Shown: positions 9,767 to 52,172, numbered from the stretch's first letter. The stretch is DNA of 64,000 nucleotides from an uncultured Planctomycetaceae bacterium (GCA_903896675.1 CAITYU010000078.1:6228-70227); one strand, 5' to 3'. The notes: a model not told the origin generated them from the sequence alone. Numbers and translations: made by a program.

Positions 9767-10900
9767 TCAGTTTGACGGACGCACACTGTACACGTAGCGG
9801 TTCTCCGGAGTTTCCGGACTTCCGGTGACAGCCAGCGCCGTCACCATCACGCAGGGCTGAAATCGCAGCCGGACAGTCTGTGCATCTGACTGCACGGCAT
9901 CCACCACCCGTACCGCCACTGCACGCTGCAGCGAAACTCCAGTACTCGCCAGACGACTGCACAGCATCAGCAGACTCGGTTCCACTCGTCCGGCCGCCAG
10001 CTCCGCCTGCACTTCCGCCAGTTGCTCCGCCTGCGGCTGCAGCGCTGGAAACACCATCGGCAGAAACAACTCCTTCAAACCCAGAACCTCCAGATCCGCA
10101 GACCTCAGACCTTCTTCAATCTGACGCTTCAGTGATCTGGCCGCAGCCTGATCACCACCACTGAAATCCAGTAATGCCAGCTCATCAGGACCGCCAGCGG
10201 GATCAGTCGTCAGCTGAACGAGAATTTCCGGGATACCGTCCGGTCCCTGCTCGAAAATTCTCAGTTCCGAATTCCATGACACCTCGTCCGAGCCCCCCCG
10301 TTGCTCGATCTGCGAAGTCCACCAGCCCGACCCGGCCGCGCCCGGATCATCGCAGATCGAAAATGGCAGCATGGGAAGTGTCTGACCGGGGGCCGGACGA
10401 AATGATACCGGCCGGTTTTCCAGACTGACTGTCGCCGCCGCTGAACACTCCGACACATTCAGCAGACTGCCCGGACGACGGTAAATGCGACCATCCGCCA
10501 TCGGATGTCTCACTCGCACTGCTGAAGGAACGGGAAACGACGCAGCATCCGCAGAATTGTCCCGCCAGATATACTCCACATCCGCTTCATTCAGAGGCGG
10601 AAGCTGCGATCTCTCAGAATACCAGTCGGCCTGATCAAGAGCCGCTTCGGTGCACGCCGCCTGCCGACCGTCGACCTGAAACTGCTGGTAACTGCTGCGC
10701 AGCAGATCGTCTGCCAGCCACTTGTGAGCAGCAGCAATGGCCGCAGACTCACAGCAGTTGCGAGCCTGCTGCATCAGCCCCGACAGCAGCCACAGATCCA
10801 GCACGAGGAACGCCAGCAGGCCGACAAAACTGAGTGCTGCCACTGACCACACAGACAGCACGCCGGAACGAGCCACACAGAGCCGCAAACTGGTCGCCAT
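9767..10900 (-). CDS. TadG-like pilus-assembly protein (putative)
   Basis: ATG at 10900. The N-terminus ARSGVLSVWSVAALSFVGLLAFLVLDLWLLSG...AAIAAAH resembles the TadG N-terminal membrane anchor. It sits directly downstream of cpaB and tadE-like genes on the same strand. Confidence 0.6.
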   Translation of the reverse strand: MATSLRLCVARSGVLSVWSVAALSFVGLLAFLVLDLWLLSGLMQQARNCCESAAIAAAHKWLADDLLRSSYQQFQVDGRQAACTEAALDQADWYSERSQLPPLNEADVEYIWRDNSADAASFPVPSAVRVRHPMADGRIYRRPGSLLNVSECSAAATVSLENRPVSFRPAPGQTLPMLPFSICDDPGAAGSGWWTSQIEQRGGSDEVSWNSELRIFEQGPDGIPEILVQLTTDPAGGPDELALLDFSGGDQAAARSLKRQIEEGLRSADLEVLGLKELFLPMVFPALQPQAEQLAEVQAELAAGRVEPSLLMLCSRLASTGVSLQRAVAVRVVDAVQSDAQTVRLRFQPCVMVTALAVTGSPETPENRYVYSVRPSN

Positions 10901-10980
10901 GCTGCCACACGGCAGACTCGTCCTGCACTCGGCCCTGCGCATGAGCACTCTCCTGTTGCGATAATCTGACCGCCGGAAAC

Positions 10981-12003
10981 TCAGCGCGGCACACCACTGT
11001 CCGCCGGCAGGTTGCCGGCCAGGTCATCCAGAGTGACATCATTGTCGTTAAGCTGGGTCGTGGAGGAACCTCGAATCGAGGAACTGTTCGGCGGTGCCGG
11101 TGCTGTGCGCGGTCCCGTCGGATTACCGATGCGCTCGCCATCCTCAAAATACTGACTGTTGAAACTGGGCCCGCGATACTGCTCTGTGCGGTAAGGCTTG
11201 TTCTCTTCACGAGCAACCGACTTCAGACCGAGAATTTCCATGAAGAAAATTCGGTCGTCCTCGCTGGCCTCAATACTGATGCCACCCTTTCCAGGACCGT
11301 TATTGCTGTAGATCAGGTCAATCTCACCTTTTTTCTGGGCCAGCAACGCAATTCGCGACTGCTCCTCATCCAGCTCCAGTGTCACACTCTGGCTGCCAGC
11401 CACTGTCGGTATCGGAGATCCCGGGGTCGATCGATTCACCTGCACCACTTTGACGCCCTTGAACAGCGTCGCTGTCATCGCATCACCACTGAGTGTGTCA
11501 CTGCGCGGATCCAGACCAGCGCGACGCCGAGCCGCTGCAGAGACATCCGCCTCATCCACGGTCAACTGCACATCCACATACTGCCCGGGTTTCAGCTTCG
11601 CATTCAGGGCCGCCGTCGTCGGACTGACACGCACGACCACTGCACGATTTCCTTCAGCGATATCCAGCTCAGGAAAATCTCCCGGCGCGTAAAACATCGA
11701 TCCTCGCAGCGGAGTCGCAGCGGTGATCTTCTCCCGGGAAATGCGGTTGATGATCGTGTCCGCGTTCAGCATTGTGTCCGGTTCAAGAGTCTTGCTGCGA
11801 TCCCACGGCCCCATGCCGATGTGTGCTCGAGTAATCGTCGTGCCGGGCTCCACGTCAGTCTGAAGCATGGGAATTGTGCGAGTCGTTCGCGGAGACTCAG
11901 TGACCGGAGCCCGCCCGAATGCCAGCTTCAGCATGTAACCGGCAGCCAGAGTACAGACAATCGAAAATGTCGCAATCGTCAGCATCCACGGCGTGATCTT
12001 CAC
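10981..12003 (-). CDS. cpaB: Flp/Tad pilus assembly protein CpaB (RcpC-like, SAF/beta-clip)
   Basis: An N-terminal TM segment (MKITPWMLTIATFSIVCTLAAGYML) is followed by a SAF-like segment (VEPGTTITRAHIGM...) and then NRAVVVRVSPTTA...LKPGQYVDVQLTV, typical of CpaB. The C-terminal tail is long and disordered. Confidence 0.8.
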   Translation of the reverse strand: MKITPWMLTIATFSIVCTLAAGYMLKLAFGRAPVTESPRTTRTIPMLQTDVEPGTTITRAHIGMGPWDRSKTLEPDTMLNADTIINRISREKITAATPLRGSMFYAPGDFPELDIAEGNRAVVVRVSPTTAALNAKLKPGQYVDVQLTVDEADVSAAARRRAGLDPRSDTLSGDAMTATLFKGVKVVQVNRSTPGSPIPTVAGSQSVTLELDEEQSRIALLAQKKGEIDLIYSNNGPGKGGISIEASEDDRIFFMEILGLKSVAREENKPYRTEQYRGPSFNSQYFEDGERIGNPTGPRTAPAPPNSSSIRGSSTTQLNDNDVTLDDLAGNLPADSGVPR

Positions 12004-12051
12004 AGGTGTCTCCTTCAGTACTCAAAACGCTCTCGATGCCGCATGGAAAAC

Positions 12052-12504
12052 TCAAAACGCCGAACCACTGTCCTCTGCCGTCACTTCCGCTGCTGCCACC
12101 CGCTCCATCACCATCGCCGCACTGGATTCCAGATAGCGATTCGACAGACTGAAACCCGTCATCCACAGCAGATCGGGACTGGCGCTGCTCATCGGCACTC
12201 GTATGAAAACACTGCCAATCTGCCCGACATATTCCGCCGGCTGAACACCAATCTCACAGTTGACAGCCAGCGCTGACCCCAGCAGATTCGCTACCCGCTC
12301 CTCGACTTCCGAAACTCCCGCACCACTCAAACTCATCAACCTCACACCCGACTGCGCCGCTGACGTGATTCGCGCATGCGCCGACATCAGCATCGAAAAC
12401 TGAGCAATGCCGAAAATCAACAGCAGAAAAATCGGCAGAACCAGCACCAGCTCCATGGACAGGATGGCACCGCGACGACCGAGCGAAACTCGTGCAGACT
12501 TCAT
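12052..12504 (-). CDS. TadE-like pseudopilin/pilus assembly protein
   Basis: RRGAILSMELVLVLPIFLLLIFGIAQFSML matches the TadE-family N-terminal motif (RG..a.E.alvlP). The 150-aa size is typical. Confidence 0.75.
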   Translation of the reverse strand: MKSARVSLGRRGAILSMELVLVLPIFLLLIFGIAQFSMLMSAHARITSAAQSGVRLMSLSGAGVSEVEERVANLLGSALAVNCEIGVQPAEYVGQIGSVFIRVPMSSASPDLLWMTGFSLSNRYLESSAAMVMERVAAAEVTAEDSGSAF

Positions 12505-12864
12505 GACAATCCCACAGAATTCAGCTTCCTCAGATCAACGACCTCCTCGCGACACTCTCTCATCGGCAGTTTCGGCCGAAATACCCCTCCACGGTCAGAT
12601 TTTCTGCAGGTTTTCCTGCACAAAACACACTCACAATCACGGGAAAACGACAGTTCGGCAACCCCATTCCAGCAGGACAGACGGCTGAGCACTCGCATCG
12701 GTGGCAGAAAAAACAGACTGCAGCGGTCGTACCGGTTTTGACGCCTCGTTAACCACCTCTGCCACGGCTGCCGTTCCCACAGTTCGCTATTCCGTTACAC
12801 TTCCAGCCAGCAGATTGAAGTTGCCCCCAAAACCCGAATTCCCGTCTCTCACAAGGTCCGGTCC

Positions 12865-13638
12865 ATGTCCCAACAAGCGTGGCTGAACGCCGCCATCGAA
12901 GCCGCTCATGTCGCCGGGCAGGTCCTCCTCGACTGGCAGGGCCGATTCTCAGTACGCGAAAAAAGTCGTGCAAACCTTGTCACCGAGGCAGACGAAGCGT
13001 CCCAGGCTGCAATCGTCAGCCACCTGCGACAGCATTTTCCGCAACACTCGTTCCTCGGTGAGGAAAATCTCAACGAACGTGGCTCCAGCGAAGATGCCGT
13101 CTGGATTATCGATCCTCTCGACGGAACCTCAAATTATGTGCACGGCTTCCCCTATTACGCCGTCTCCATCGCACTGATGCTTCACGGCAAAATCGAGGTT
13201 GGCGTAATTCTGGATCCCACGCGACAGGACCTCTTTACGGCGATGCGCAACGGCGGTGCTGCTCTCAACGGCTCCCCTTTGCAGGCCAGCGGCGAAACAC
13301 AAATTGATCGAGCGTTCGGTATGGCCAGCCTGCCAATCGCCGCAAATCCGGAAAATCCGGCAGTGCGGAGATTCCTCACCGCCCTCACCTCACTACAGAC
13401 CGTGCAACGCACCGGTTCCGCCGCACTCAATCTTGCCAACCTCGCAGCCGGCCGCATCGATGCCTTCTGGTCCAGCAGCCTGAATGTCTGGGACATCGCC
13501 GCAGGAGCACTGCTGGTCACCGAGTCCGGAGGAGCCCTGTCCAACCTGAAAGGCGAACAAATCGACCTGTTCGCACCCAGCTTGCTCGCTGCCGGCTCCG
13601 CAGAACTTCAGCGGAAACTTGCAGACCTGTTCACATGA
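12865..13638 (+). CDS. Inositol monophosphatase family protein (SuhB-like)
   Basis: The IMPase signature motifs are present: FLGEE, WIIDPLDGTSNYVHG and WDIAAGALLVTESGG. Confidence 0.9.
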   Translation: MSQQAWLNAAIEAAHVAGQVLLDWQGRFSVREKSRANLVTEADEASQAAIVSHLRQHFPQHSFLGEENLNERGSSEDAVWIIDPLDGTSNYVHGFPYYAVSIALMLHGKIEVGVILDPTRQDLFTAMRNGGAALNGSPLQASGETQIDRAFGMASLPIAANPENPAVRRFLTALTSLQTVQRTGSAALNLANLAAGRIDAFWSSSLNVWDIAAGALLVTESGGALSNLKGEQIDLFAPSLLAAGSAELQRKLADLFT

Positions 13639-13859
13639 TCACACATATTCCCTCCGCTTGACAAATTGCCACATTGCAGCACCTCCGTAAACTTTGGCAA
13701 CTTCTCCCGCCCACGCGGTTTGCGTAAACTATACTGACTGCAGACTGGCGGACTCTGTTCGGCGAAATCCAGGCCAGTCATTTCGGCGGTTGACACAGGT
13801 CGGCCGCCTCACTGTCACTCACGTCAGCAATTACAGTGACGCGGGAAGGGTTGGGGTTT

Positions 13860-16800
13860 ATGCATCGGCGACTCCCGAAATTCGGCAGCGCCGCACGACT
13901 GTTGCTGGCTGGTGCTCTGCTTGCCAGTCTGTGCGTGTTTACGTCCCCTGTTTCTGCACAGTCTGATCTTTCGCTGCCCGCAACGCCCCCAGCCACCACG
14001 CCGGGTTCCGTCGCAGAAACGCCCGACACGTCGGACATTCTGATCCGCATGAAGTCCGGAGAACTTGTGCCCCTCCGCAATCTGCTGGGACCTGATATTG
14101 CCGATCTCCTGCTGCAGCGCGGGCTGGAACAGCGTGCCGTTCCGTCATTCACAATCGCCCACACTGAGATCACGGGAACCATTGATCGCGATGTTGTCCG
14201 ACTCACATTTCGTCTGCAGATACAAATCCGCACCGACGCTGAGTGGGTCGCCGTTCCGGTTTCGTTCGGCGAGGTGTTCCTGACCGAGTTTCGCCATGAA
14301 TCGCAGTCCTCCGGCGCCGAGGCCGTGCTGTCGGCAGGCGAGCAGAACCTGAGAACCTGGCATCTCAGAGGTCGCGGTCTGCACACACTCACCCTGCAGA
14401 TGATCAGCCGCGCTCGACCCGTACCCGGTGGTGGCTGGCAACTGAATCTGACTCTGCCGCAGTCCACAGCTTCTCACGCACGCCTCGATTTTGCTGTCCC
14501 CGTCGACCTGCAGCGTCTGCCAGGCGATGCTGTTTCACAGGCGCAGCGCGATGGGGAGGGTGTTCGTGCTGTCGAGCTCTGGGGGTTGTCAGGCCCGATC
14601 TCTCTGTCATGGTCCGAAATCGCTCCACAGGTCGCCGTCCCCCCTGTAGTACAGTCACAAACCCGCATCAAGCTGGACCTGACCACCATTCCTGTCAGCC
14701 TGAATGGCACACAGTCACTGCAGATCACCGGCGGTTCTCTGTCTGAGGTCACCGTGGTTTATCCACCGGGGTTCGAATTGCAGGAGGTCAGTGCCCGAAA
14801 CTCCGCCAATGCCTCGGTCCTTAAGAATTTTGAGTCGCTGCCGAATGAAAACTCGCAGCGCACCCTGATCCGCCTCACTTCCGCTGTTGAAGGACAACTG
14901 ACCCTCGGTTTCGAACTCGAAATGAAGGAACAGGCCTTTCCCCAGACCATCGCCGTCTCGCTGCCGGTTGTTCAGGAGGCCAATGTCCAGACTGGCGACC
15001 TCGATATTCTGATTCCGTCCGGGCTTGTCGTGGAACAGTCGAAGGTCGAAGGTGCTCAGAGACGTCGCGTGGCCTCAGACGTGGCCGGCGGAGTTGCAGC
15101 AACGGCATTTCGGCTCAGATCACCGGAATCACGGATTCTGCTGCAGGTGAAGGAGACAGAAGCCCAATACATCTTCACACAGGAACTGGAATTGAAGCCG
15201 GAGGGCAACTCCATCAGTCTGCTGCTCCGCTGGAACGTGAATGTCCTGCGCGGCTCTCTCCTCGAACTGCCACTGCAGTGGCCGCAGGCCATGCGTGAAA
15301 TCTGGGGACTGCTCCCAGGAGACATTGTCATTCAGCGACAGCCGGGTACCTCGGCCGCAATTCTGCGCGACGTTGAAGGTCAGCCGGACTGGATGACTCT
15401 GACATTTCTTGAACGTCAAACCGGCGAATTCAGCGCAGAACTTCGCTGCCTTGCCAAACAGGAAGCCACTGCGGATGCTGTGCTGAGCCTGCTCTGCCCG
15501 CAGGTTCGCGAGCGTACCGGACAACCCGTCACGATTCGCCTGATGCAGTCCGATCAGAATCGTATCGAAATCACTGCTCCCGCATCTGCCGATGCCCTGA
15601 CCGCCATCTCTTCACCAGGTGCTGTCCCCGAGTCTGCAGGGCCCGTCAATCCAATACGCAGCCTGCTGTATCGAGATCCGGAGCAGCCTCTTCTGGTCTC
15701 GCTGCGAAAACAGGATCCCGTTGTCGAAGCCGATGTTGCCACAGGATTCACTCCGGTTGAAAACGGACTCGAAGTTCGACAGCAGATTCGCTTTCTGATC
15801 GATCACAAAGACCTGACTGAAGTGGCACTGTTTGTGCCTGATCGAGTCCAGCCTGTGGTACGAGCATCTGGCAGCCGTGAACCGCTGCGGCCGGTCATCG
15901 GGCCCTCCGGAAAGTGGACGTTTCGACTCCCTCAGTCTGCTCGGGGAGAACTGCTGCTGGATGTGGGCTGGATCTGGAATGCGCAGCTATCCGAGTCGGC
16001 ATCGCCCGATTCGATCCGGGAATTGCCACTCGTGATCCCCGGTGACTGCCTGATTCGCAGTATCCGAGCGCAAACGGCAGCGTGGAGCGGACTGCAGGTT
16101 GCTGACCCCGTTCGCTGGGAGCCTGTTTTCTCCGAAGAGTCTGATGCAGCGTGGCAATGGCAAAGCGGTCAGACCGGTGGCGGGTCTTCTGCAATCCCCG
16201 CTCTGACGGCACAAAACCTGACACTGCCTGTCCGCACCACAAAAAACTCCGTCTTTAGAGAAACGGAATGCCCACTCCTGATCCTCGCAGGCTCCGAATT
16301 GCTGCCCGGACAGGCGCTTACAACAACAATCGCGGCATGGGAGGACGTTCCCCGAAGCGTGTTTTTCAGCCTCGAAAATGCACTGCAACTGGAATCTGTG
16401 CAACTGGGAACTCGCCTCCTGACCACATCCGACGTGGCCAGAACAGCGCTGCAGGCCGTACCGACTACTGACGGCAAAGCTGTACGCTGGCAGATCCTGC
16501 CCACGGCACTCGAACAGTTGAAAGGCCCGACAGTCCTGCTCATCAGATGTCGCCAGATCACCCCCTCGGGCTCAGCGTTTTACCGCCGACTCAGCCTGCT
16601 GCGACCTCGGTTCTCCTCGGAAGAAGCTGCACTCCCGGTGGTCTGGAGCCTGCTTTCATCACCCGGAGCCCGCTGTATTCCACTCGGACAGGATTTCGAA
16701 TCGTTTGACCACGGACTGAGCTCTGCACTGCCATGGAGGCAAACCGTGGCAGCCCAGCACGCTGCCGACCTCGCCTCCGTAATCTCAACACTCTCGCCTG

Positions 16801-17294
16801 CGGTCCGCACCGCCGTCGAAACCTGCACTCAGACGCTGATCCAGCAGCACAATGCCAGCGAACTGTGCCTCGGCACTGCGGCCGCCCGGGAATTCAGAGT
16901 CGTTGAAGTTCCACTCGCCCTGCAGGTCCTCGCCGCCGCACCCGGCTGCGCTCTGATCTTCCTTTCCATGTCCCTGTTCAGACGCCTCTCTCCACTCGTC
17001 CCCCTCGTTCTCACACCCGCTCTGGCACTGACCATGTGGATTGCTCAGCCCGCCTGGTCGGCTGTCTTTCTGCCCGCTGCCGTTGTCGGAGTACTTGCAG
17101 GAATGGGCATCGCTCAGCTGCACCGATATCTGGCAGATCGACGTCAGACAGGCAGTCCGATTGCCAATGCCACTGAACTGCCCTCCATCTTCGGCATTCC
17201 TGACCTTACAGCAGCAGACGTTCGTGATAACCACGGTGCAGCATCTGGCAGTAGTGCTCTGCGACCCGATCTCTCCTCAGGCTCGGCACGCTGA
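13860..17294 (+). CDS. Giant envelope protein A (1144 aa): signal peptide, ~1000-aa ectodomain of unknown fold, 3 C-terminal TM helices
   Basis: ATG at 13860 gives MHRRLPKFGSAARLLLAGALLASLCVFTSPVSAQ. The frame is long and uninterrupted with a beta-strand-like alternating pattern. The C-terminus has three hydrophobic segments (LALQVLAAAPGCALIFLSMSLF, LVPLVLTPALALTMWIA, AVFLPAAVVGVLAGMGIAQL). I recognise no catalytic motif. Confidence 0.85.
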   Translation: MHRRLPKFGSAARLLLAGALLASLCVFTSPVSAQSDLSLPATPPATTPGSVAETPDTSDILIRMKSGELVPLRNLLGPDIADLLLQRGLEQRAVPSFTIAHTEITGTIDRDVVRLTFRLQIQIRTDAEWVAVPVSFGEVFLTEFRHESQSSGAEAVLSAGEQNLRTWHLRGRGLHTLTLQMISRARPVPGGGWQLNLTLPQSTASHARLDFAVPVDLQRLPGDAVSQAQRDGEGVRAVELWGLSGPISLSWSEIAPQVAVPPVVQSQTRIKLDLTTIPVSLNGTQSLQITGGSLSEVTVVYPPGFELQEVSARNSANASVLKNFESLPNENSQRTLIRLTSAVEGQLTLGFELEMKEQAFPQTIAVSLPVVQEANVQTGDLDILIPSGLVVEQSKVEGAQRRRVASDVAGGVAATAFRLRSPESRILLQVKETEAQYIFTQELELKPEGNSISLLLRWNVNVLRGSLLELPLQWPQAMREIWGLLPGDIVIQRQPGTSAAILRDVEGQPDWMTLTFLERQTGEFSAELRCLAKQEATADAVLSLLCPQVRERTGQPVTIRLMQSDQNRIEITAPASADALTAISSPGAVPESAGPVNPIRSLLYRDPEQPLLVSLRKQDPVVEADVATGFTPVENGLEVRQQIRFLIDHKDLTEVALFVPDRVQPVVRASGSREPLRPVIGPSGKWTFRLPQSARGELLLDVGWIWNAQLSESASPDSIRELPLVIPGDCLIRSIRAQTAAWSGLQVADPVRWEPVFSEESDAAWQWQSGQTGGGSSAIPALTAQNLTLPVRTTKNSVFRETECPLLILAGSELLPGQALTTTIAAWEDVPRSVFFSLENALQLESVQLGTRLLTTSDVARTALQAVPTTDGKAVRWQILPTALEQLKGPTVLLIRCRQITPSGSAFYRRLSLLRPRFSSEEAALPVVWSLLSSPGARCIPLGQDFESFDHGLSSALPWRQTVAAQHAADLASVISTLSPAVRTAVETCTQTLIQQHNASELCLGTAAAREFRVVEVPLALQVLAAAPGCALIFLSMSLFRRLSPLVPLVLTPALALTMWIAQPAWSAVFLPAAVVGVLAGMGIAQLHRYLADRRQTGSPIANATELPSIFGIPDLTAADVRDNHGAASGSSALRPDLSSGSAR

Positions 17295-17295
17295 A

Positions 17296-20200
17296 ATGCC
17301 CGGACTTTACCTGATACTTTTTTCCTTGTTCCTGCAGGTTGGCACCGGGCAGGCAGATCCGCAGCCTCCCCGGACATCGGCCGCCATCGACTCTGCAGAT
17401 GCCCGCACAGCCCCCCCTGACAGCACGGCCACCACAAACCCCGGACAACTCTCGGAATTGATCGCTGCGGGTGAGTACGTTCCTCTGTCTCAGAAAGATC
17501 TCATTGCACTCCAGAAACTTCTGACAACTTCCAGAGAACCCGCTGCCCCGACGATCCGTATGGCAAGCTATGCGGCCGAATTCAGAGGACGCACCCTCGC
17601 CGCCGGAACACTGCAGTTCGGACTCTACAGACCGCAACAGGCGGCATTCGGCAACGGTCTGCTGCTGGGACGCACCAGCCTGCGACAACTGCAGCTCCGG
17701 GATCCGCAGGGACCTGTCCCGCTGGGCGCAGATCCTGAAAGACGGCTGTTCATACTGAAGCCCGGCCTGACCGGTGATCTCAGCGGTACGTGGACCGCCG
17801 ATGGACTCGTCTCCGGAGACTCCACCATTTTTCGACTGGAGTTGCCCGCCAGCAGTGCCACTTCGCTGCAACTGAAAACACCCCCGGAAACAGAAGTCAC
17901 CGGACTCGGCTGCCTCGTTCTCGGACCCCAGACCACAGAATCCGGACTCTTCTGGGATCTCCTGGCTTCCGAACCTGCCAGACTGGCATTTTCCTGCCGA
18001 AACACGGCCCAACTGATGGCATCCGAACCCCTCACTCTCACAAGTTACTCTGCAAGTCACGTCCTGAATGGTGACATCATGTCCTCGCGATGGACCATCG
18101 GGCTGCCACAGAACGCCCCGGACCTCACAGTGTTGTCGGCTCGACTCAGCACAAACGCCCGCGTGACTGCCGTTCGCACTGATGAAAATCGCTCCGTGCA
18201 ATGGGAAACACACAACTCCGAGAATTCACAGAATCTGCTCATCAGACTCACGGACGCCGGATCCGCCGGATCCCTGACAGTCTCAGCCGCATCAGTGATC
18301 CCGGATGCCGACAAATGGGATCTTCCAGCTCTCTCGCTGCAGGAATGGCAGATCACCACGGAGACTCGTGGAGCACTCTTGACACCGCCAGGCATTGTCA
18401 GTGTCTCTCTGCCCTCCACCGTCAATATCGATGAATGGTCGCTCTCCGGAATGCAGGAACGAGACGTTGTACCGGGACCCGATCAGTCACGCACCTATCA
18501 GCTGACACAATACAGCAGCGATGCCACGGCCACCGTCCGCACGTCCACAACAGCAGCGGTGCTGTCCGATGCCGTGGCAACTGTACTGCAGCCCACCGGG
18601 CAACTTGCTGCCGTCCGCTGTTTCGTCAATGTGCAGTGCCGCGACGCTGCTGTCATAGAGCTCAAATGGCCCATTAATGCCGGCTGGCAGATCGTCGCCG
18701 CTCGCTATGCCTCAAACAATCGGGCATTGTACTTTGAACAGCGATCCGCGTCAGGCACTGATGCTTCTGATGGCACAGAAAGCTCCGTACTCACGGTGCA
18801 CCTTCCCGAAACCCTGGAACCCGACACTTCACGAGTCATTGACCTGCAGATGCAGCAGTCCGAAACAGCAGACCCGGCTGCCCTCCAGCCTCCCCTCGCT
18901 GTCGCGCCGGACGTCGAACGCTCAGCAGCATGGCTCCTCTACTCACCGGCAACTCTGACCGGATCGCGGCTCTCAGCACGCTGGTCCGGCGGCTTGCAGT
19001 CCATGGCAAATCAGACTTTTCTCGCTGCTGCTCCATGGTTCCCTGCCGCCAGCATCTCCGAAGAAACCCTCTGCTACTATGGCGGAGATTCGCTGCCGCA
19101 AATGCCGCCGGATACGCAGCCTGTTCAATGCCGAGTTGCACACCAACTGCGGACGGACGGAGACGGTGTCGTCGTCGAGAACCTGCAGATCGAATGCTCA
19201 CCCCCGCAATCACAGTCCAGCATCACCCTCCGAGTGGGCGCTGAATTCGCTGAAGAAATCAGCTGGACAGTCAATGGGCAGACTGTGAATCCCGCCTGGC
19301 GCCCCGCTCCGGGAACCGAAAACTCCTGGCGCGATGCCGCCTTCCAGCTGCCACAGACAGGCAATAACACAACTGTAATCATCAGTGGCACCATCCGACG
19401 CGCCGTCACCGAAGAATTCTCCGCTGCAGTTCCCTTTCTTCCCGATGCCGAAACCACCAGCGCTGTTATCACTCTGCCTCCCTCAGATCTCAAGATCCTC
19501 AGTGTTACGGGACTGCAGGAATCCACAGCCGGCTCAGAAAATGCACAACTGGCGTCATGGATCCTGCCCATCGAACCACAGACAATACTCATCCGAAGAT
19601 CCAGCCCTGAAGTCAGAAACCCGATTCAGTCAGCGGATGCCGCCTGCTATCACCTGATTCGCGAACGCAATGGGCAGGTCGAACATCGTATGCTTGCTGT
19701 CATCGATGTTACCGGCCCCGTAATTGAAAATCAGCTTCTCTTCGACACCGCCCGGACAAACCCTCACATTCTTGTCGAAGGACGACGCATCGCTGCTGAA
19801 CAGGGCCCCTCGGGACTGCGAATCCCGCTGCCCGCTGCCGCTGATCGCTGCCGCGTCGTCCTGACATGGGTTCCTGAATACACTCCACTGGAAAATATTC
19901 GCAGTCGACTGACTTTATCAGGACTGCGTTCCATCAATGGCAATGGAGTACAGTTTGTGCACCACCTGCTGATCGCTCCTGAACTTGAACCAGAACTGCC
20001 CCCCAGTGAATTCCGTGTGGCAGATTCCTCCACCGCACCGCAACTCGAAAAACTCCTCCTCAGAAACACTCCGGAAAACACCATAACCTCAGCAGACTCC
20101 GCCGGATTGACTTCCGGACCACATGCAGAAACAACACTGTTCCAGCTGTACTGGGAACTTTCAAGAACCCGAGGCTGGACCCGCGCATGGTTTGTTCAGC

Positions 20201-23200
20201 CCGATACGGACGGCAATCCCATGTCACTGGAAGTCACTCAGAAGCAGCGACGCCGGATCGTCGCTGCCGGGATGGGCGTCGTCTTCTTCGGCATCTGCCT
20301 CTCCTGCTCAACTCTGTTGCTGCGAAATCCTCAGGCGGCAGCCCTCCCCGTCATACTGCTCTCACTCGCTGGCCTCTTTGAATTCACACCCGTGGTTCAC
20401 GCCGCATTGCAGGGAGCATTCTGGGGAAGTGCCGGAGCCCTGTTGCTGATGCTGTCAATTCGCAGCCTGCTGAGGTACCTGCGCAGCTTCCGAAACTTCG
20501 CGATACTCCATGGCCTCGGTTTGCTCGTTACCCTCACGGCACAATCCGCGATGGCCCAGGAAACCACTCAGGAATCCCGCAGCCCACAGACTGAAAACGC
20601 ACCGCCCCCTGACATACTGACACCCCCACAAACACCCGAAACAGCAGGAATTGCCTTTGTTCGACGCAGTTATCTCCAGCAACTCCGACAACTGGAACAG
20701 TTGCTGCCTGAAAAATCAGGCGCTGTCGTACGCTCTCTCAAAGCCATCGTCACTGCCAGTGCACCGGATTCCGTCGAACTCAGACTCCAGCTTGTCGTGT
20801 CTGTACCCAGCAGCGATCAGCCACGCTCTCTCACTCTCCCCACCCACGGAACCCAGTTGGTTTCATGTGAAGTCGATGGACAACTTGTCTTCCCGGACCC
20901 ACAGCTTCCAGGTCAACTCTCCATTCCCATCCCCGCCTCCATATCCGTTCCCGAACTCCCAATAGCCTCCGCCAATCAGAATGGCAGATCTGTACCCGCA
21001 GACGAAGTCGCAGCATTCTCCGAACACGTCGTCGTCTGCCGACTTCGCCCCCCCACGCTCCGCCAGCCCTCAGGTCTGCAATTCCGCATTCCGGCTCCGC
21101 CCAGCCCGCAATCCGAAATTGAAATCGTCGCCACTGAAGGCCTGTTCTCTGACGCCCGACTGCAGTCCGCTGACGGCTTCATCCAGTGGAAACCCGCCGA
21201 CGGTTCAGTCGCCTTCAATGGACTGGCCGGTGGAGACTCTGTCGATGTGCGACTGCTGCAGACCGAGCTCGACCGCAGCCGCGCAAATCCCGCTCGCGTC
21301 GAAGTCATGACTGTTGCTGAAAACACCACCGGACTGCAGAGTCTCAACTGCTACTGCCGATTCGAACAATGGAACCCCCTCAGCACAGTCATACGCTATC
21401 GCATACCCGACGGATTCCGACTGCTCTCCGCTGCCGCAGCTGCCGGCTTCCAGAACCCGGAACTGCTGTGGTCCACTGAAAATCAATCCGCTGTCATCGC
21501 TCTTCCTGGTGTTGTTCCAGCGGACTTCATACTGCACCTGCAGCTCAGATCCACACGGCCCCTGCCGCTCCAGCAACAGTTGATTCCCGTTCATCAGTTG
21601 AATCAGTTCGCCGACTGTACTCCCACAACCGACGGGATTCTTGCTCTGCGGGCAAACCCCATCTTTGCACCCATCACACCCGACAGAAGTCTGGCCACAC
21701 CACTCAGCTTTACAGACGTCTCACCACGCTGGGGCCCATGGCTCAGACGGTCCGATCTGATCTTCCGGATTTCACAGAATTCCGCCAGTCTGCAGATCAC
21801 CGCTCCTGACCGCACAGCAACCAACGAAGTCCGCATTTCGCAGGAATGCACGTTCACCGAACAGTATCTGAACTGGACCTGCCGCATGGACGTCGAAACT
21901 TCTGCCCTCGCCGTCTTTCGACACCGTATCACCATTCCCGAAAAAATCATTGTACAGAACGTGGAAGTCACAGCCGGTGAAGCTAATCGACTCGCCTCAT
22001 GGCACCGTCGCGGAAATCAGGTCATCATTCTGCTCCGCGAAGGTACAACCGGGCTGCACGCCATCACACTGCAGGGAACCCGGGAAATCCTGCCCGATGA
22101 TGCCGATCTGCGTATCAGCAGCCCAACACTTGAAAAATCCCAGATTCTTGAATCCTCTCTGGTATTGACTGATCAGTCCGGTACAGGGCTCGTCTTCGCT
22201 GATACCGGTGACGCCGTCTCCGACCCTCCAATCATGCCAGGTGATGTCCTCCAGCGGGGCACTTCACTCAGGCTCACGGTCGTCGGTGAAACTCGCCCCA
22301 TCAGACTTACCAGACTGAATCCCGTGGATCCGCAGGGAGCAATCGCCGCATGGTGGCTTGCCGATCGACTCCAGTTCGCCGTGCGGCTCACACAGTGGTC
22401 AGTTGCACTCGGACCGCTCGAAATGAATTTCCCAGAAAACACCGTGTTTGTCAGTGAGCCAGCCGTTCTCTCCAACCGTGAAAAGTACGCACTGCAGCGA
22501 CAGGGCCAGAGATTCTTCGTCGATGGCTCTGCCATCAGATCCCTCTTCGGACAATCCGACTTCACGGTGATCTGGAGCCTGCCCCTCCCGGAACGAAAAT
22601 CGGCCCCCGGCAATGAACCTGCCAGCGTTCCGTGGCCCACGATCTCCGAACGCATCACCTGGTCCGAACTGTTCATCGCTGAACAGCCACCCGCGCAGCA
22701 GTCACCGGAATCACGCATGCCTGACTGGACGCTCGATGCCGGTCGACTGCAGATGGCGGTCTCAGGCGCTCGTGAACTGGAATACGCTCAACGACTGCCC
22801 GCAGATCAGTTCATCAGAAATATGAACATCCGACTTCCAATTCCCCCCGCAGCGAACGAAGCGGATTCCGGTCCCGGCAACAGCCTCGTGGCTGTTTCAG
22901 CAACCGTCGTATCGGCGCAACCAGGACAGTCACCGGCCGCTGAAACCGAATTTCTCGTCTTCAGTCGCGTCTCACCCTTCACATGTATCGTTGAAGTACC
23001 CGACACCGTCGCCGTAACTGAACTGCCAAAGAATGTCTACGCCACGTGGGAAGCTCCCGGACGAAGACGCCTTCTGCTGTCCTCAGGCACAAATCTCGCC
23101 CGCTTTACACTGCGCTGGCTCGCAAGACTGACCGCTGACCAGAACCGACAGTCCGGGCTGAGACTGGCTTGCCCGTACGTTAGAAACAGCCAGTTGCGAC

Positions 23201-23733
23201 AGCACCTCTGGATCATCTCGCCACTCCGCGAAATGCCATCCGTCATCAGTGACAGCCCAGTGCTTACAGCCGAACAACAGCAGTTACTCCTGAAGCAGGA
23301 TCTTCGCTCAGGACTCAGTCTCCTCGCAAAAACCAACTCACGAAATCCTGATCAGAATCCGCTGACCACTGAACAGCTCGCCGACTCCCTCGGAAACTCC
23401 GTCACCACGTTCATGCACCGCGAAAACCATGAGTCCGGGAGACGCACTATCCGACTGCACAGAACCACCACCGATTCCATCAGTATCTCATTCCGCAGAC
23501 ACCTCGAGCTGACCGCCATCATCCCGATCGGAATCGGCCTTTTCCTGATGGTTCTGGCTGTGATCTCGGGCACGGGATCATCCACCGGCACTCAGAATCT
23601 GACCACCGTTGTCGCATCCCGCAGCATGATTCAGTCCACGACACTCAACCCGACCCATCCTGAACCGTTCAGCGTTCCGGAAACTGCCCCATCAAACCTC
23701 GATTCAGACGCCCCGCAGGCCATCAGAAACTGA
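17296..23733 (+). CDS. Giant envelope protein B (2145 aa): two tandem units of the gene-A architecture
   Basis: The ATG at 17296 lies 1 nt after the gene-A stop (TGA 17292-17294) and gives the signal-like leader MPGLYLILFSLFLQVGTGQA. TM helices are encoded at about 20255-20450. An internal signal-peptide-like segment MLSIRSLLRYLRSFRNFAILHGLGLLVTLTAQSAMAQE starts at an in-frame ATG at 20449. The last TM is LTAIIPIGIGLFLMVLAVISG, near the C-terminus. Confidence 0.85.
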   Translation: MPGLYLILFSLFLQVGTGQADPQPPRTSAAIDSADARTAPPDSTATTNPGQLSELIAAGEYVPLSQKDLIALQKLLTTSREPAAPTIRMASYAAEFRGRTLAAGTLQFGLYRPQQAAFGNGLLLGRTSLRQLQLRDPQGPVPLGADPERRLFILKPGLTGDLSGTWTADGLVSGDSTIFRLELPASSATSLQLKTPPETEVTGLGCLVLGPQTTESGLFWDLLASEPARLAFSCRNTAQLMASEPLTLTSYSASHVLNGDIMSSRWTIGLPQNAPDLTVLSARLSTNARVTAVRTDENRSVQWETHNSENSQNLLIRLTDAGSAGSLTVSAASVIPDADKWDLPALSLQEWQITTETRGALLTPPGIVSVSLPSTVNIDEWSLSGMQERDVVPGPDQSRTYQLTQYSSDATATVRTSTTAAVLSDAVATVLQPTGQLAAVRCFVNVQCRDAAVIELKWPINAGWQIVAARYASNNRALYFEQRSASGTDASDGTESSVLTVHLPETLEPDTSRVIDLQMQQSETADPAALQPPLAVAPDVERSAAWLLYSPATLTGSRLSARWSGGLQSMANQTFLAAAPWFPAASISEETLCYYGGDSLPQMPPDTQPVQCRVAHQLRTDGDGVVVENLQIECSPPQSQSSITLRVGAEFAEEISWTVNGQTVNPAWRPAPGTENSWRDAAFQLPQTGNNTTVIISGTIRRAVTEEFSAAVPFLPDAETTSAVITLPPSDLKILSVTGLQESTAGSENAQLASWILPIEPQTILIRRSSPEVRNPIQSADAACYHLIRERNGQVEHRMLAVIDVTGPVIENQLLFDTARTNPHILVEGRRIAAEQGPSGLRIPLPAAADRCRVVLTWVPEYTPLENIRSRLTLSGLRSINGNGVQFVHHLLIAPELEPELPPSEFRVADSSTAPQLEKLLLRNTPENTITSADSAGLTSGPHAETTLFQLYWELSRTRGWTRAWFVQPDTDGNPMSLEVTQKQRRRIVAAGMGVVFFGICLSCSTLLLRNPQAAALPVILLSLAGLFEFTPVVHAALQGAFWGSAGALLLMLSIRSLLRYLRSFRNFAILHGLGLLVTLTAQSAMAQETTQESRSPQTENAPPPDILTPPQTPETAGIAFVRRSYLQQLRQLEQLLPEKSGAVVRSLKAIVTASAPDSVELRLQLVVSVPSSDQPRSLTLPTHGTQLVSCEVDGQLVFPDPQLPGQLSIPIPASISVPELPIASANQNGRSVPADEVAAFSEHVVVCRLRPPTLRQPSGLQFRIPAPPSPQSEIEIVATEGLFSDARLQSADGFIQWKPADGSVAFNGLAGGDSVDVRLLQTELDRSRANPARVEVMTVAENTTGLQSLNCYCRFEQWNPLSTVIRYRIPDGFRLLSAAAAAGFQNPELLWSTENQSAVIALPGVVPADFILHLQLRSTRPLPLQQQLIPVHQLNQFADCTPTTDGILALRANPIFAPITPDRSLATPLSFTDVSPRWGPWLRRSDLIFRISQNSASLQITAPDRTATNEVRISQECTFTEQYLNWTCRMDVETSALAVFRHRITIPEKIIVQNVEVTAGEANRLASWHRRGNQVIILLREGTTGLHAITLQGTREILPDDADLRISSPTLEKSQILESSLVLTDQSGTGLVFADTGDAVSDPPIMPGDVLQRGTSLRLTVVGETRPIRLTRLNPVDPQGAIAAWWLADRLQFAVRLTQWSVALGPLEMNFPENTVFVSEPAVLSNREKYALQRQGQRFFVDGSAIRSLFGQSDFTVIWSLPLPERKSAPGNEPASVPWPTISERITWSELFIAEQPPAQQSPESRMPDWTLDAGRLQMAVSGARELEYAQRLPADQFIRNMNIRLPIPPAANEADSGPGNSLVAVSATVVSAQPGQSPAAETEFLVFSRVSPFTCIVEVPDTVAVTELPKNVYATWEAPGRRRLLLSSGTNLARFTLRWLARLTADQNRQSGLRLACPYVRNSQLRQHLWIISPLREMPSVISDSPVLTAEQQQLLLKQDLRSGLSLLAKTNSRNPDQNPLTTEQLADSLGNSVTTFMHRENHESGRRTIRLHRTTTDSISISFRRHLELTAIIPIGIGLFLMVLAVISGTGSSTGTQNLTTVVASRSMIQSTTLNPTHPEPFSVPETAPSNLDSDAPQAIRN

Positions 23734-24772
23734 CCCCCGCGCGCACCAACCACGTGCTGTCCAGCGAAGTTTCGTCTGCACCGCTTTCCCATGAAAATGA
23801 GCGGTCAAATACTAGGCCACATTCCATGAAGGCCGATTGATTTTCAGGCAGCAGCTGCTCCAGACCCAGCATCAGTCGCAAGTCCCGGATCGTCAGCTGA
23901 TCAGACATTCCCGAGGCTCGCTGCACCGCCCACGTGTTGCCACCAAAGACTCCGGAAAGATAACCCCACAACTCGCTGTTCTGACCATCCTTCATCAAAC
24001 GCCTTGAAATCCGCGGAGACGGAAACTGCACGTCAATTCTCCACTCACGACTCGGAGTCCACAGCAACCCCGCCGCAGGCAATATCGGGAAGTCATCTCG
24101 CCCCGTGTACACCGCCCCACCGGACAGCGACAACTTTTCCGGAACGGCCTGCCACGTCAAAAGACCCAAACCAAACAGTCGCACTGCTCCGTCACTGTTT
24201 CTGAAGTCCGTTCGCACACCCGGGGTAACAATTGCCATCGTACTCAGACGATCGGTCAGAGTCCTTCGCCAGAAGCCCCGCACACCCGTTTCATAAACCT
24301 CGGAGGGCAGATCAAACATCGCACTGGAAGTCAGGAAATCCGCGCGAAAAAATGGCGTTATCAGCAGAATATTCTCAAAACTTCCAAGAGGCACTCCGAA
24401 TGTTGTCGACGCATCCAGCGAACCAATTGCCAGTCCGGATGAGGAGTCGTCATGCAGGTAACTGCTGATCAATGTACCCCCCTGCCAGCATCCCTTTTTG
24501 CCCTTCGGGATCGGCAAATCCCCGCAGTCATCCGCACAGCCCTCATCACCCGAATGATTGAAAAACTGCTCCGGCTCGGGAAGACGCCGATTGAACTCGA
24601 GGTCGGACATCTGGTCCGCGGCCGCACTGTCCCCGGACTCTGACACTGCCAGCTCCTCTGGCACGATGGATGCAGGCAGCCATTCGTCATCCGCACCAAC
24701 GGGTGCGGCACACAACGCAACTGCGAGCATGACCCGATACAGGCACTTCCAGCGCAAAGAATGTCGGTTCAT
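23723..24772 (-). CDS. Putative outer-membrane beta-barrel protein
   Basis: ATG at 24772 gives the signal peptide MNRHSLRWKCLYRVMLAVALCAAPVGA. The sequence has an alternating beta-strand pattern and ends ...WLVRAGVSF, where a terminal aromatic residue is typical of BAM substrates. Its 3' end overlaps the gene-B 3' end by 11 nt. Confidence 0.7.
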   Translation of the reverse strand: MNRHSLRWKCLYRVMLAVALCAAPVGADDEWLPASIVPEELAVSESGDSAAADQMSDLEFNRRLPEPEQFFNHSGDEGCADDCGDLPIPKGKKGCWQGGTLISSYLHDDSSSGLAIGSLDASTTFGVPLGSFENILLITPFFRADFLTSSAMFDLPSEVYETGVRGFWRRTLTDRLSTMAIVTPGVRTDFRNSDGAVRLFGLGLLTWQAVPEKLSLSGGAVYTGRDDFPILPAAGLLWTPSREWRIDVQFPSPRISRRLMKDGQNSELWGYLSGVFGGNTWAVQRASGMSDQLTIRDLRLMLGLEQLLPENQSAFMECGLVFDRSFSWESGADETSLDSTWLVRAGVSF

Positions 24773-25006
24773 TATTGCTCCGCTGCTGCTGCTCCACACA
24801 CCCTGCGGATCGACGCCAGCCGCCCTGCGCACAGGCCCCCCCGGCGCACATCGCCCCGTGGAGGTCTTCGGCATTCTCCGATCATTCCCCCGAAAACGAA
24901 TTCACGGATCCTTCGTTACAAACGGAAACAACGGTCCCTCCGCTGCCTCATCGGCAATTGCTGCCGCACAGGCACCCCACACTTTCGGCTGCTCTGCCCC
25001 TCTGCC

Positions 25007-34441: not shown

Positions 34442-34666
34442 TGACTTCGCCCCTCGCCGTTCAAATACACCCCGCGCACACACCTGATCGTTCAGCACAA
34501 TTGTACAAACGCTGCCTTAAGCTCCAATGAAGAGACTCGGCCTGCTGCAATTTCAGCTTACCACACTGTCACCCGCAGTCCGGAGTTGCAACTCCCGCCT
34601 CTTTCGCGGAAAACGTCCGGATCCGCAACCGCAGAACCGGATCCGAAATCCGCACTGGAGCTCCAC

Positions 34667-51049: not shown

Positions 51050-52114
51050 TCAGGCCGCCCACGACCGCTGCGCACGCAACTCCAGCTCACCATAAATCAA
51101 ACCACCACGCACAACCGCCGTGTCCGGCGCAACTGCCCGCTGCACCAGAAATCGCTGGCTGCCACCGCTTAACAGAGATAACTGCTCCGCCAGCAGTTCC
51201 GGCACACCGGAGGTCCCCGCAAAACCACCCGACAACACCACCTGCACAGGACGCAATGCCTGTACCAGACCCTCTGTATGCTCCAACTGCTGCACCACCA
51301 CAGTCGCCAACTGCTGCAACACTGCCCGCACCAGCCTGCTCAACACATGCTCCTGCTCATCACGCGGCTGACGCACATCCACCGACTGCTGGCGACGCCA
51401 ACTGCTGACTCGAGCCATGTCCAGATATGCCGCCCCGTCCGCATCCCAGACATGCAAACGCAGTTGCTTCGCCAACTCAGAGTCCACCCAGTTCCCACCC
51501 GCCGGCAGCCAGCCGGATGCCTGGACAAGCCCACGGCGCGCCAGACACCAGCTGCTCGACTCCGCACCCAGCACCACACTGACCCCCGTATACTGACTGT
51601 CCGGCCACACTGACAGCAATGCTGCCTCTGCTGCCCCCAGCTGCACAGCACTGAAACCCGACATCTCCACAAGACGACGCAGAAACTCCGCACCACCAGC
51701 CGTCTCCGACGGCAATCCCTCCTGCTCCCCCACCCGCGCTTCAGCAGCCGGCGTGATCATCACACACAGATTCTCACCATCCGTCACACGCGGCAGCAGA
51801 CAACCCGTCAGGATATGCAGTAACTGCCTCGCAGGCGCATCCGCACACGGCACTCGCCCACCGGGAAACATCGGAGTCGCCGGGATGCGGGTCAGCCAGC
51901 GAGTCCGCTCCACGTCATTCCCCACAATCAATAACACTCCCTCGCCCACCGCATAAGGCACCCCCTGATCACTGAGCGCGCGACGATGCAACGCCGTATC
52001 AGGCACCGCTGAATATTCGGATCGCATCTCCAGACGCTGCAAACGGGATCCCGGACCGCCGGAACGACAAAGACTCCGCAGACTACCGCAGCCAAAATCC
52101 AGCGAACAGATCAT
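51050..52114 (-). CDS. Actin-fold (ASKHA-like) protein, divergent PilM/FtsA/ParM-like (putative)
   Basis: ATG at 52114 gives MICSLDFGCGSLRS, which is phosphate-1-like. VSVVLGAESSSWCLA sits at the phosphate-2 position. VVLSGGFAGTSGVPELLAEQL is an adenosine-motif-like LSGG.A...G segment. The protein ends AVVRGGLIYGE. The 355-aa size is typical of PilM/ParM. Confidence 0.6.
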   Translation of the reverse strand: MICSLDFGCGSLRSLCRSGGPGSRLQRLEMRSEYSAVPDTALHRRALSDQGVPYAVGEGVLLIVGNDVERTRWLTRIPATPMFPGGRVPCADAPARQLLHILTGCLLPRVTDGENLCVMITPAAEARVGEQEGLPSETAGGAEFLRRLVEMSGFSAVQLGAAEAALLSVWPDSQYTGVSVVLGAESSSWCLARRGLVQASGWLPAGGNWVDSELAKQLRLHVWDADGAAYLDMARVSSWRRQQSVDVRQPRDEQEHVLSRLVRAVLQQLATVVVQQLEHTEGLVQALRPVQVVLSGGFAGTSGVPELLAEQLSLLSGGSQRFLVQRAVAPDTAVVRGGLIYGELELRAQRSWAA

Positions 52115-52172
52115 GATTTTTTTCCGGATACCACCAACCAAATCCTGCCCCGCTGCCACTCACGGTTCCAGA

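Follow-up and report, generated by a model that had tools for sequence, protein, structure and literature searches.

The window analysed here is a stretch of 64,000 nucleotides (nt) from an uncultured Planctomycetaceae bacterium (GCA_903896675.1 CAITYU010000078.1:6228-70227). Within it, two large neighbouring genes on the plus strand, here called A and B, encode three membrane-anchored units. Unit 1 is the product of gene A, and units 2 and 3 both lie in gene B. A preliminary description of this DNA had proposed two real genes, A with 1144 amino acids (aa) and B, separated by 1 nt, and the open reading frame (ORF) list and the translations give exactly these boundaries, with the two frames differing (Table 1). 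A GTG at 17236 is another possible start of B, which would add 20 codons and give a protein of 2165 aa, as in the database entry P0038. The ATG at 17296 is the likelier start, because a plain signal peptide begins at the ATG position in B orthologues.

In most gene calls of relatives, the stop of A and the start of B overlap (ATGA) or lie 1-11 nt apart, and A and B are translationally coupled. Gene B is one stop-free ORF of 1818-2444 codons in every complete locus except L049. Whether B is divided into two genes in relatives had been raised by the preliminary description; apart from this locus, it never is. In L049 (10187-16784), B appears as two overlapping ORFs of 1352 and 894 codons, which is probably a frameshift or an assembly error of that metagenome-assembled genome (MAG) and not a natural split. 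The possibility that A and B form one frameshifted giant gene is rejected, as the two are separate in all loci.

Comparison of the family profiles indicates that the three units are paralogous and follow one common plan. Using hhalign, A was aligned with unit 2 at 99.2% probability (E 2e-19), collinearly over A65-1083 and unit 2 57-1050 with the transmembrane (TM) module included, and with unit 3 at 98.3% (E 1.5e-14; A58-943, unit 3 54-935). Units 2 and 3 matched each other at 96.5% with a register shift of one repeat, and at 92.7% in the collinear alignment. Thus, the shared plan claimed in the preliminary description is borne out for all three pairs. These alignments needed remote family members: an earlier enlarged comparison gave 97.1% and 87.8%, and the alignments of the close clade alone gave probabilities of 50%, 17% and 2%. 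The homology of the units was therefore resolved by adding the remote members, and the close-clade set alone would mislead. With BLASTP, the sole match between units is a weak one between A306-475 and B276-459 (E 4e-4), and unit 2 has no match to unit 3. A HMMER profile of diverse A-like proteins likewise does not match the B family of the window. The short segments that had been quoted as opening each unit in the same order are all present, and profile-profile alignment pairs them, as GELVPL / GEYVPL / IAFVR and, further on, VVRLTFRLQIQI / LAAGTLQFGLY / SVELRLQLVVSV.

Aligning the A profile with itself matched 104-767 to 270-961, a shift of approximately 166 residues over 600 columns (97.3%, E 2.5e-11). 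Each ectodomain therefore consists of five tandem domains of about 170 residues, fifteen in the pair.

A separate family of "double A-like" proteins of about 2090 aa (P0232-P0237) was also found, in which the A profile matches both halves and the profiles of units 2 and 3 match neither. In L058, such a gene (10001-16261) lies between two pairs of extracytoplasmic function (ECF) sigma/anti-sigma genes (zf-HC2 + vWA + YfbK_C). With two A-like units and this ECF sigma/anti-sigma context, P0232-P0237 are rejected as orthologues of B.

The topology was derived from hydropathy, and the AlphaFold2 (AF2) models of units 1 and 3 agree with it. Every homologue examined, 36 of A and 25 of B, has the hydrophobic pattern of the window proteins. 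Because the N-termini are exported, the three regions of about 950-1000 residues are predicted to be periplasmic, and the Arg-rich loop of B and both C-terminal tails to be cytoplasmic. This topology puts all three ectodomains in the periplasm with anchors in the cytoplasmic membrane, as the preliminary description had it. The surface location that it had also considered is unlikely, given the C-terminal membrane anchors with cytoplasmic tails. Its count of three, three and one TM helices stands, whereas the border that it drew between units 2 and 3, at residues 1051/1052, falls inside TM3 and should be moved to about 1056-1068.

With family alignments, AF2 gave models of unit 1 (predicted local distance difference test, pLDDT, 77) and unit 3 (pLDDT 74), both nearly all beta, in line with the strings of beta-sandwiches that had been suspected from the sequence. 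The two models share one order of elements: a disordered Pro/Thr linker, a strand and helix, the all-beta region, the hairpins and the TM segment. In unit 1, pLDDT is below 50 at residues 27-58, strands follow at 61-63 and 69-71, and helices are located at 72-90; G67 in this motif reaches 90% conservation in the wide family. Linkers modelled with low confidence (255-259, 586-596 and 771-802) coincide with borders of repeats. The juxtamembrane region of unit 1 comprises helices 960-975 and 980-997 and strands 1001-1006 and 1011-1018, and unit 3 has equivalents of them. In the cytoplasmic tail of A, F1111 and G1112 are invariant within the close clade.

Table 1. Features of the A-B locus and its flanks in the window (res, residues of the protein; a slash marks the predicted cleavage site)
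Feature	Position	Strand	Basis or remark
Partial Tad/Flp cluster: TadE-like 12052-12504, CpaB/RcpC 10981-12003, 393-aa protein	9767-12504	-	divergent from the IMPase gene
Inositol-monophosphatase-family (IMPase) gene, 257 aa	12865..13638	+	Pfam Inositol_P, E 8.6e-65
Promoter-like element TTCTCC-17 nt-TAAACT	13702..13730	+	comparison of intergenic regions; directly after the IMPase stop
Gene A = unit 1, 1144 aa	13860..17294	+	ORF and translation; ATG 13860, TGA 17292-17294
Unit 1 signal peptide, res 1-32, ...PVSA/QS	13860..13955	+	hydrophobic 14-32, AF2 helix 9-26, sequence
Unit 1 Pro/Thr-rich disordered linker, res 33-60, and strand-helix motif, res 61-96 (SGELVPL...)	13956..14147	+	AF2
Unit 1 five beta-sandwich repeats of ~170 aa, res ~97-258, 263-433, 436-585, 600-770, 780-950	14148..16709	+	profile self-alignment, AF2
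Unit 1 juxtamembrane helical hairpin and beta-hairpin, res 951-1018	16710..16913	+	AF2
Unit 1 three-helix TM module, res 1019-1040, 1046-1062, 1068-1087	16914..17120	+	hydropathy, AF2
Unit 1 cytoplasmic tail (~55 residues), conserved motif ELPSIFGIPDL at 17175-17207	17121..17291	+	AF2: disordered
Gene B = units 2 + 3, 2145 aa	17296..23733	+	ORF and translation; ATG 17296, stop 23731-23733
Unit 2 signal peptide, res 1-20, ...GQA/DP	17296..17355	+	sequence; orthologue N-termini are signal peptides
Unit 2 periplasmic ectodomain, res 21-987, collinear with unit 1	17356..20256	+	hhalign
Unit 2 three-helix TM module, res 988-1009, 1014-1030, 1037-1055	20257..20460	+	hydropathy; hhalign to the TM module of A
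Arg-rich cytoplasmic loop (12 residues, res 1056-1067) and signal-like helix TM4 (res 1068-1087, 20497-20556), AMA/QE	20461..20556	+	
Unit 3 periplasmic ectodomain, res 1088-2071: linker, strand-helix, five beta-sandwich repeats, helical hairpin, beta-hairpin	20557..23508	+	AF2, hhalign
Unit 3 single TM helix, res 2072-2092, and low-complexity cytoplasmic tail	23509..23730	+	hydropathy score 2.7; AF2 local helix 1021-1041
DUF6268 gene, 383 aa	23723-24874	-	signal peptide, C-terminus ...AGVSF; takes the bacA position in the window

The junction between units 2 and 3 resembles a second signal peptide. In nearly all of the 30 aligned B orthologues, remote ones included, TM4 ends in a small-x-small motif followed by Q or W (AMA/QE, LSA/QD, LIA/QS, ARA/WQ and TAA/QE), and the N-terminal signal peptide of A likewise ends in ...A/Q. 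From this conserved motif, B is probably cut by signal peptidase I at the internal AxA/Q site, which would release unit 2 with four TM helices and unit 3 with one.

The family is broad. A word-indexed search found 37 full-length homologues of A (30-94% identity) and 25 of B (2044-2258 aa, 23-100% identity). A genome scan collected 49 species-level loci, all of them MAGs and nearly all labelled Planctomycetaceae or Planctomycetota; the few Kuenenia and Chitinophaga labels are probably binning or labelling errors. An exhaustive profile search gave 853 representative clusters (50% identity) at E<=1e-3, 155 of them at E<=1e-30, and nearly all of the 150 listed cluster matches are full-length proteins of about 1050-1250 aa. 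With 49 genome loci and 853 clusters, the pair is not peculiar to one strain, a possibility that the preliminary description had left standing. The family was seen in Planctomycetota metagenomes and MAGs only. Every name attached to its members is "hypothetical protein", and the literature on planctomycete crateriform structures, on ribophorin in Planctomycetes and on links between IMPase and undecaprenyl yielded nothing on the A-B family.

Conservation is uneven along the units. In an alignment of 153 sequences, the TM helices are free of gaps and carry the highest information (TM1 1.98 and TM3 1.95 bits). Along the ectodomain, the information falls from D1 (1.76 bits) and D2 (1.69) through D3 (1.45) and D4 (1.40) to D5 (1.12). 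The TM module and the two membrane-distal domains thus appear as the best conserved parts in this alignment. The near-invariant residues are, with few exceptions, Gly, Pro and Trp. In the remote subfamily, no peptide apart from the TM3 motif [LV]LLQPA[LIV]LG[LF] was sufficiently conserved for use as the seed of a DNA pattern search.

Upstream of A lies the IMPase gene, whose product does not reach the equivalog cut-offs for SuhB, HisN or CysQ. Wherever the flank was long enough, the order IMPase-A-B was found on one strand: in each of the 49 genome loci and in all 18 metagenome loci of a remote, mostly marine subfamily. It also holds in five of six remote contexts, whose A proteins have just about 16-20% identity to that of the window, which brings the total above 70 loci. 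In the most remote context, that of P0238 (JGI 3300047160), a 162-aa Metallophos phosphoesterase occupies the IMPase slot, followed by a 1125-aa A-like protein and a 2430-aa protein. It may be a non-orthologous replacement of the phosphatase.

A receptor-like role was also considered. The units could act as an integrin-like sensor, in which the distal domains bind a periplasmic ligand and the TM module and tail signal to the IMPase-family protein or to another cytoplasmic partner. The conserved TM helices and the short linear motif in the tail of A are consistent with such a device, as are the Metallophos phosphoesterase in the IMPase slot of the most remote context and the position of the double A-like proteins of about 2090 aa between ECF sigma/anti-sigma (zf-HC2 + VWA) pairs. 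However, neither A and B nor the invariant neighbours contain a signalling domain (kinase, GGDEF, HTH etc.), and the tails are short and mostly of low complexity. IMPase-family enzymes are small-molecule phosphatases, and we know of none that is coupled to a receptor. We regard the sensor as improbable.

Downstream of B, the partner varies. A bacA/uppP gene, which encodes undecaprenyl diphosphatase, lies directly after B, mostly in convergent orientation, in 14 loci of close and remote clades (L012, L014, L016, L017, L019, L040, L046, L049, L051, L054, L055, L056, L062 and L079). In the window, the DUF6268 gene is convergent with B and overlaps its end by 11 nt. Its product has a signal peptide and the C-terminus ...AGVSF, which are typical of an outer-membrane beta-barrel, the predicted nature of this protein. 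DUF6268 adjoins IMPase-A-B, on either side, in about 20 of the 49 close loci and was not seen in the remote contexts. The Tad cluster flanks IMPase-A-B in about 30 of the 49 close loci, and in the remote locus L054, TadA/B/C-type genes (T2SSE, T2SSF) are located there. In L003, the orthologue of the 393-aa protein weakly resembles TadG at its N-terminus. Both DUF6268 and the Tad genes are missing beside IMPase-A-B in part of the loci, and no STT3/PglB gene was found in the retrieved flanks of the loci.

The Tad genes raise the question of whether A and B form a complex that assists or aligns the Tad/Flp pilus or the crateriform structures, the exit sites of fibres. The divergent TadE-like, CpaB/RcpC and TadG-like genes upstream, in the window and in about 30 of the close loci, speak for it, together with the TadA/B/C-type genes at the equivalent position in one remote locus. 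Yet no Tad genes stand beside the triad in L001/L002, the L023-L028 group, L053 and L055-L057, and where present they are on the other strand. The A/B family matches no pilus family and, to our knowledge, the Tad systems of other phyla need no A/B-like proteins. This explanation has a slim chance in our view. As A and B match no Tad profile and the linkage is neither constant nor on the same strand, they are also rejected as Tad/Flp components proper.

Between the IMPase gene and A, a promoter-like element was identified (Table 1). The exact TTCTCC-17-TAAACT pattern is unique in the window, where 0 matches are expected by chance. It recurs at the equivalent position in 13 loci, and the degenerate form TTC[AT]CC-17-TA[AG]ACT extends across the clade. 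In L012, L014, L016, L019, L024, L038, L040 and L046, the ATG of A lies 6-7 nt past the -10 box, a spacing that suggests a leaderless A mRNA in loci of the L012 type; in the window, the predicted leader of A is about 120 nt. A-B probably has its own promoter, to judge from this element, and the link to the IMPase gene is therefore positional and not necessarily co-transcriptional. A site at 13666-13693 from a generic promoter scan is not conserved among the loci and was set aside. A generic terminator scan found none after the IMPase gene.

Elsewhere in the window, a 369-aa protein (51050-52159, minus strand) matches Pfam Volactin (PF25216) over its full length at E 1.7e-30. Volactin is an actin-fold family described from haloarchaea, and a member would be unexpected in a planctomycete window. 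The 614-aa gene beside it (52173-54017) has no Pfam match. A giant gene of 1850 aa (34586-40138, plus strand) contains a neutral-ceramidase N-terminal region, DUF7133 and HEAT repeats. Most other long ORFs of the window are on the minus strand. The GC skew is negative in all 2-kb bins of 1-64000 (-0.05 to -0.29) and least negative over the 5' part of A (14001-16000: -0.049), where the AT skew changes sign.

No named domain was recognised in A or B. Searches against Pfam and NCBIfam returned no domain at E<=1 except a meaningless Expansin_C match (E 0.24), and 39 divergent A-like proteins gave no Pfam match at E<=0.1. The best stray match, TgpA_N on the TM region (E 0.02-0.06), is below any threshold. 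The motifs CGEQ, CGE and DxSxS are absent from A and B, and no catalytic-like residue set was found; across the wide family, conservation is limited to G, P and W positions together with H175 and Q285. When the A and B family profiles were searched against all PDB sequences, Ost1/RPN1 chains included, nothing significant appeared; the A3 profile had nothing at E<=10 and the A2 profile nothing relevant. An Rfam scan of 12000-25000 showed no RNA family. The empty Pfam, NCBIfam and motif searches are in keeping with the preliminary description, which had seen no named domain, no thioester (CGEQ) and no von Willebrand factor A (vWA) motif.

Several candidate identities were tried and rejected. A vWA protein is contradicted by the lack of DxSxS, of a VWA Pfam match and of an alpha/beta Rossmann-like region in the AF2 models. 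Membership in the ribophorin I family by sequence (PF04597) is not supported, with no profile match in A, B or the 39 divergent A-like proteins. An integrin alpha subunit would carry an N-terminal head, a seven-bladed FG-GAP beta-propeller, for which there is no Pfam match; here a linker and strand-helix precede the first beta-sandwich, and only the leg part of integrins matches. A known anti-phage defence system is rejected, as PADLOC gave no match for A, B or the IMPase-family protein. A surface adhesin is likewise rejected, because the units end in TM anchors followed by cytoplasmic tails, occur as one conserved copy and have housekeeping genes as neighbours.

The units might still be divergent members of a known beta-sandwich envelope family, such as an alpha-2-macroglobulin (A2M)-like protease trap or a BatD-like or DUF4139-type protein. 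BatD and anchored bacterial A2M proteins have a signal peptide, several beta-sandwiches and a membrane anchor, and weak A2M/complement matches occur low in the Foldseek lists (7s63_A, probability 0.20; 7nyc_A, probability 0.15). However, no Pfam match to A2M/MG, BatD (PF13584) or DUF4139/DUF4140 was obtained at E<=1 for the window proteins or at E<=0.1 for the 39 A-like proteins. The thioester motif is missing, and MoxR, DUF58, BatA/B and PBP1c neighbours are absent from the more than 70 loci. Moreover, we know of no three-paralogue architecture in the BatD and A2M families. We consider this placement very improbable. BatD, A2M and DUF4139 were the families to which the preliminary description had thought the units might yet belong; none has a sequence match. 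The units are also recognisably homologous to one another, and the pair occurs widely.

At the level of fold, the units have relatives. In Foldseek searches against the PDB, Ost1/ribophorin I of yeast and human tops the lists of both models, with E from 1e-10 to 1e-6 and probability 1.00 (8b6l_O at 1e-10, 6ezn_A at 9.8e-9), and about 430/438 residues are aligned. After Ost1 come integrin alpha legs, C-domains of streptococcal AgI/II, ITIH1, PIG-T and the N-domain of M1 aminopeptidase. The matches to integrin alpha legs extend over 550-850 columns at E of about 1e-6, and PIG-T (7wld_T, 8imx_T) is matched by both units at E 1e-4 to 8e-4. Against viral structures, only generic tandem beta-sandwich proteins were found. 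On these predicted models, the units are not fold orphans, and their best relatives appear to be Ost1/ribophorin I, PIG-T and integrin alpha legs.

Such folds could serve a purely mechanical purpose. As a strut or tether, the legs would span the wide planctomycete periplasm and set the distance from the membrane to the peptidoglycan or the outer membrane, with no part in biosynthesis. The five rigid-looking beta-sandwich domains of each unit, with a variable stalk and conserved ends, suit this purpose, as do the fold matches to integrin legs over 550-850 columns and the gene of the predicted outer-membrane barrel DUF6268 beside the triad in about 20 of the 49 close loci. Nevertheless, DUF6268 is not seen in the remote contexts, and no peptidoglycan- or outer-membrane-binding domain is detectable with Pfam. 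A strut leaves the invariant IMPase and the recurrent BacA neighbours unexplained, and with a predicted template modelling (pTM) score of about 0.4, the length and rigidity of the models are not fixed. We think a strut unlikely, though it deserves some weight.

We propose, with a little less than even confidence, that A and B form a non-enzymatic scaffold in the periplasm, anchored in the inner membrane and built in a fixed 1:1:1 stoichiometry from three paralogous type-I-like proteins. After Sec export, three AxA/Q sites would be cut, and B would become two polypeptides. Since units 2 and 3 are fused in B and B is coupled to A in translation, the three legs would be produced in equal amounts. 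We speculate that the legs associate through their eight TM helices and the juxtamembrane hairpins, and that the ectodomains reach approximately 20 nm into the periplasm, where the variable proximal domains would form a stalk and the conserved D1-D2 would do the binding. The complex would then hold or organise a periplasmic partner; our preferred guess is a step of polyprenyl-phosphate-dependent envelope glycan or peptidoglycan assembly. The conserved motif in the cytoplasmic tail of A might contact a cytoplasmic partner, possibly the IMPase-family protein.

The link to lipid carriers is a weaker part of this proposal. A role in lipid-carrier-dependent envelope assembly is suggested by analogy, because bacA recurs in the neighbourhood and because Ost1 and PIG-T work beside lipid-linked transferases. 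A bolder version holds that A-B is the core of an overlooked envelope machine across the Planctomycetota, a three-legged scaffold with a polyprotein gene, acting in polyprenyl-phosphate-dependent glycan or cell-wall assembly as a true homologue of Ost1/ribophorin I and PIG-T. We give this version a small chance.

Several observations weigh against the scaffold and its proposed role. With pTM scores of 0.38 and 0.42, the models can be trusted for the single domains but not for how these are arranged, which leaves the overall shape and length undefined. The structure models cover units 1 and 3, each modelled on its own. For Ost1, the TM-score on the target is 0.22-0.33, the root-mean-square deviation 14-21 Å and the identity about 10%, and the resemblance may be a convergent use of the common beta-sandwich. 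BacA is mostly convergent, hence not co-transcribed, and is missing beside the pair in the window and in many loci. The link to the IMPase gene could be a conserved gene order without shared function, and this invariant neighbour is explained neither by the scaffold nor by any of the alternatives. Meanwhile, the per-column information of the TM helices is partly an effect of composition. Finally, no cultured carrier turned up among the cluster look-ups and homology searches, which returned MAG and metagenome entries only and are not a proper test of this point.

The preliminary description had presented the locus as an undescribed envelope system at the periplasm or the surface. It holds in part, as an undescribed, conserved, membrane-anchored periplasmic set of three like units; the surface location is unlikely, and the lattice, spacer or conduit that it offered as examples are candidate forms at most. 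The family is new at the level of sequence, with no record in Pfam, NCBIfam or the literature, and it is unusual in combining three paralogues and fifteen repeats with a probable polyprotein. The fold of its building block is of a known kind, and so is its likely role as a scaffold. Almost 10 kb of coding DNA has stayed intact, with gene order and topology unchanged, though A proteins share just 16-20% identity between lineages. Planctomycete envelopes have an enlarged periplasm, crateriform structures and, in many lineages, division without FtsZ, and molecular handles on them are few. A conserved and apparently single-locus scaffold of 1:1:1 design would be a concrete molecular target in this field. 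Entry points to its function are its resemblance in fold to Ost1/ribophorin I and PIG-T, the bacA gene that often accompanies it and the invariant IMPase neighbour. If the complex is a passive spacer only, it is still a new phylum-restricted family that deserves a Pfam entry.

We compared A-B with named systems that share one or another of its properties. The fbcH-type cytochrome b-c1 precursor of Bradyrhizobium is a bacterial membrane polyprotein cut by signal peptidase at an internal signal sequence. B resembles it as a putative membrane polyprotein with an internal signal-peptidase site, which for B is deduced from the conserved AxA/Q or AxA/W motif, whereas the proteins and their function are unrelated. 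Processing of B at this site would make it a rare case of a bacterial membrane polyprotein matured by signal peptidase.

BatD and the YfhM-type anchored A2M proteins are also tethered to the cytoplasmic membrane of the bacterial envelope and have several beta-sandwich domains. A2M genes pair with the cell-wall gene pbpC, which may be likened to the bacA often found beside A-B. In contrast to them, A-B lacks their Pfam matches and the thioester, and has no MoxR/DUF58/vWA or pbpC neighbours. With the integrin alpha legs (thigh, calf-1, calf-2), the units share a string of large beta-sandwiches, a TM helix and a short cytoplasmic tail, as well as the hetero-oligomeric arrangement of legs, which for A-B is our proposal. 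A and B have no beta-propeller head, FG-GAP, vWA/I-domain or metal-ion-dependent adhesion site (MIDAS), and the analogy is one of architecture only.

PIG-T, a subunit of the GPI transamidase that is luminal and has a single C-terminal TM helix, is like the units a membrane-anchored beta-sandwich scaffold. Its match is weaker than that of Ost1, it has no sequence relation to them and a different number of domains, and A-B has no transamidase partners. The closest comparison is Ost1/ribophorin I, a subunit of the eukaryotic oligosaccharyltransferase. Ost1 has two similar beta-rich luminal domains and one TM helix, is non-catalytic and holds the glycosylated peptide; next to a transferase with a polyprenyl-PP-linked donor, it serves as a scaffold or holds the substrate (PMC7226087). 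The differences are clear: there is no sequence similarity, and Ribophorin_I is not matched; the A/B units have five domains against two in Ost1 and come as three paralogues; A and unit 2 carry three-helix membrane modules; and A-B is bacterial and periplasmic, with no known STT3/PglB partner. What the predicted models appear to have in common with Ost1 is a tandem of similar beta-sandwiches on the non-cytoplasmic side and a C-terminal TM segment, and both lack an enzyme signature. Were the homology to Ost1 and PIG-T real, A-B would be a bacterial counterpart or antecedent of accessory subunits that have been thought specific to eukaryotes.

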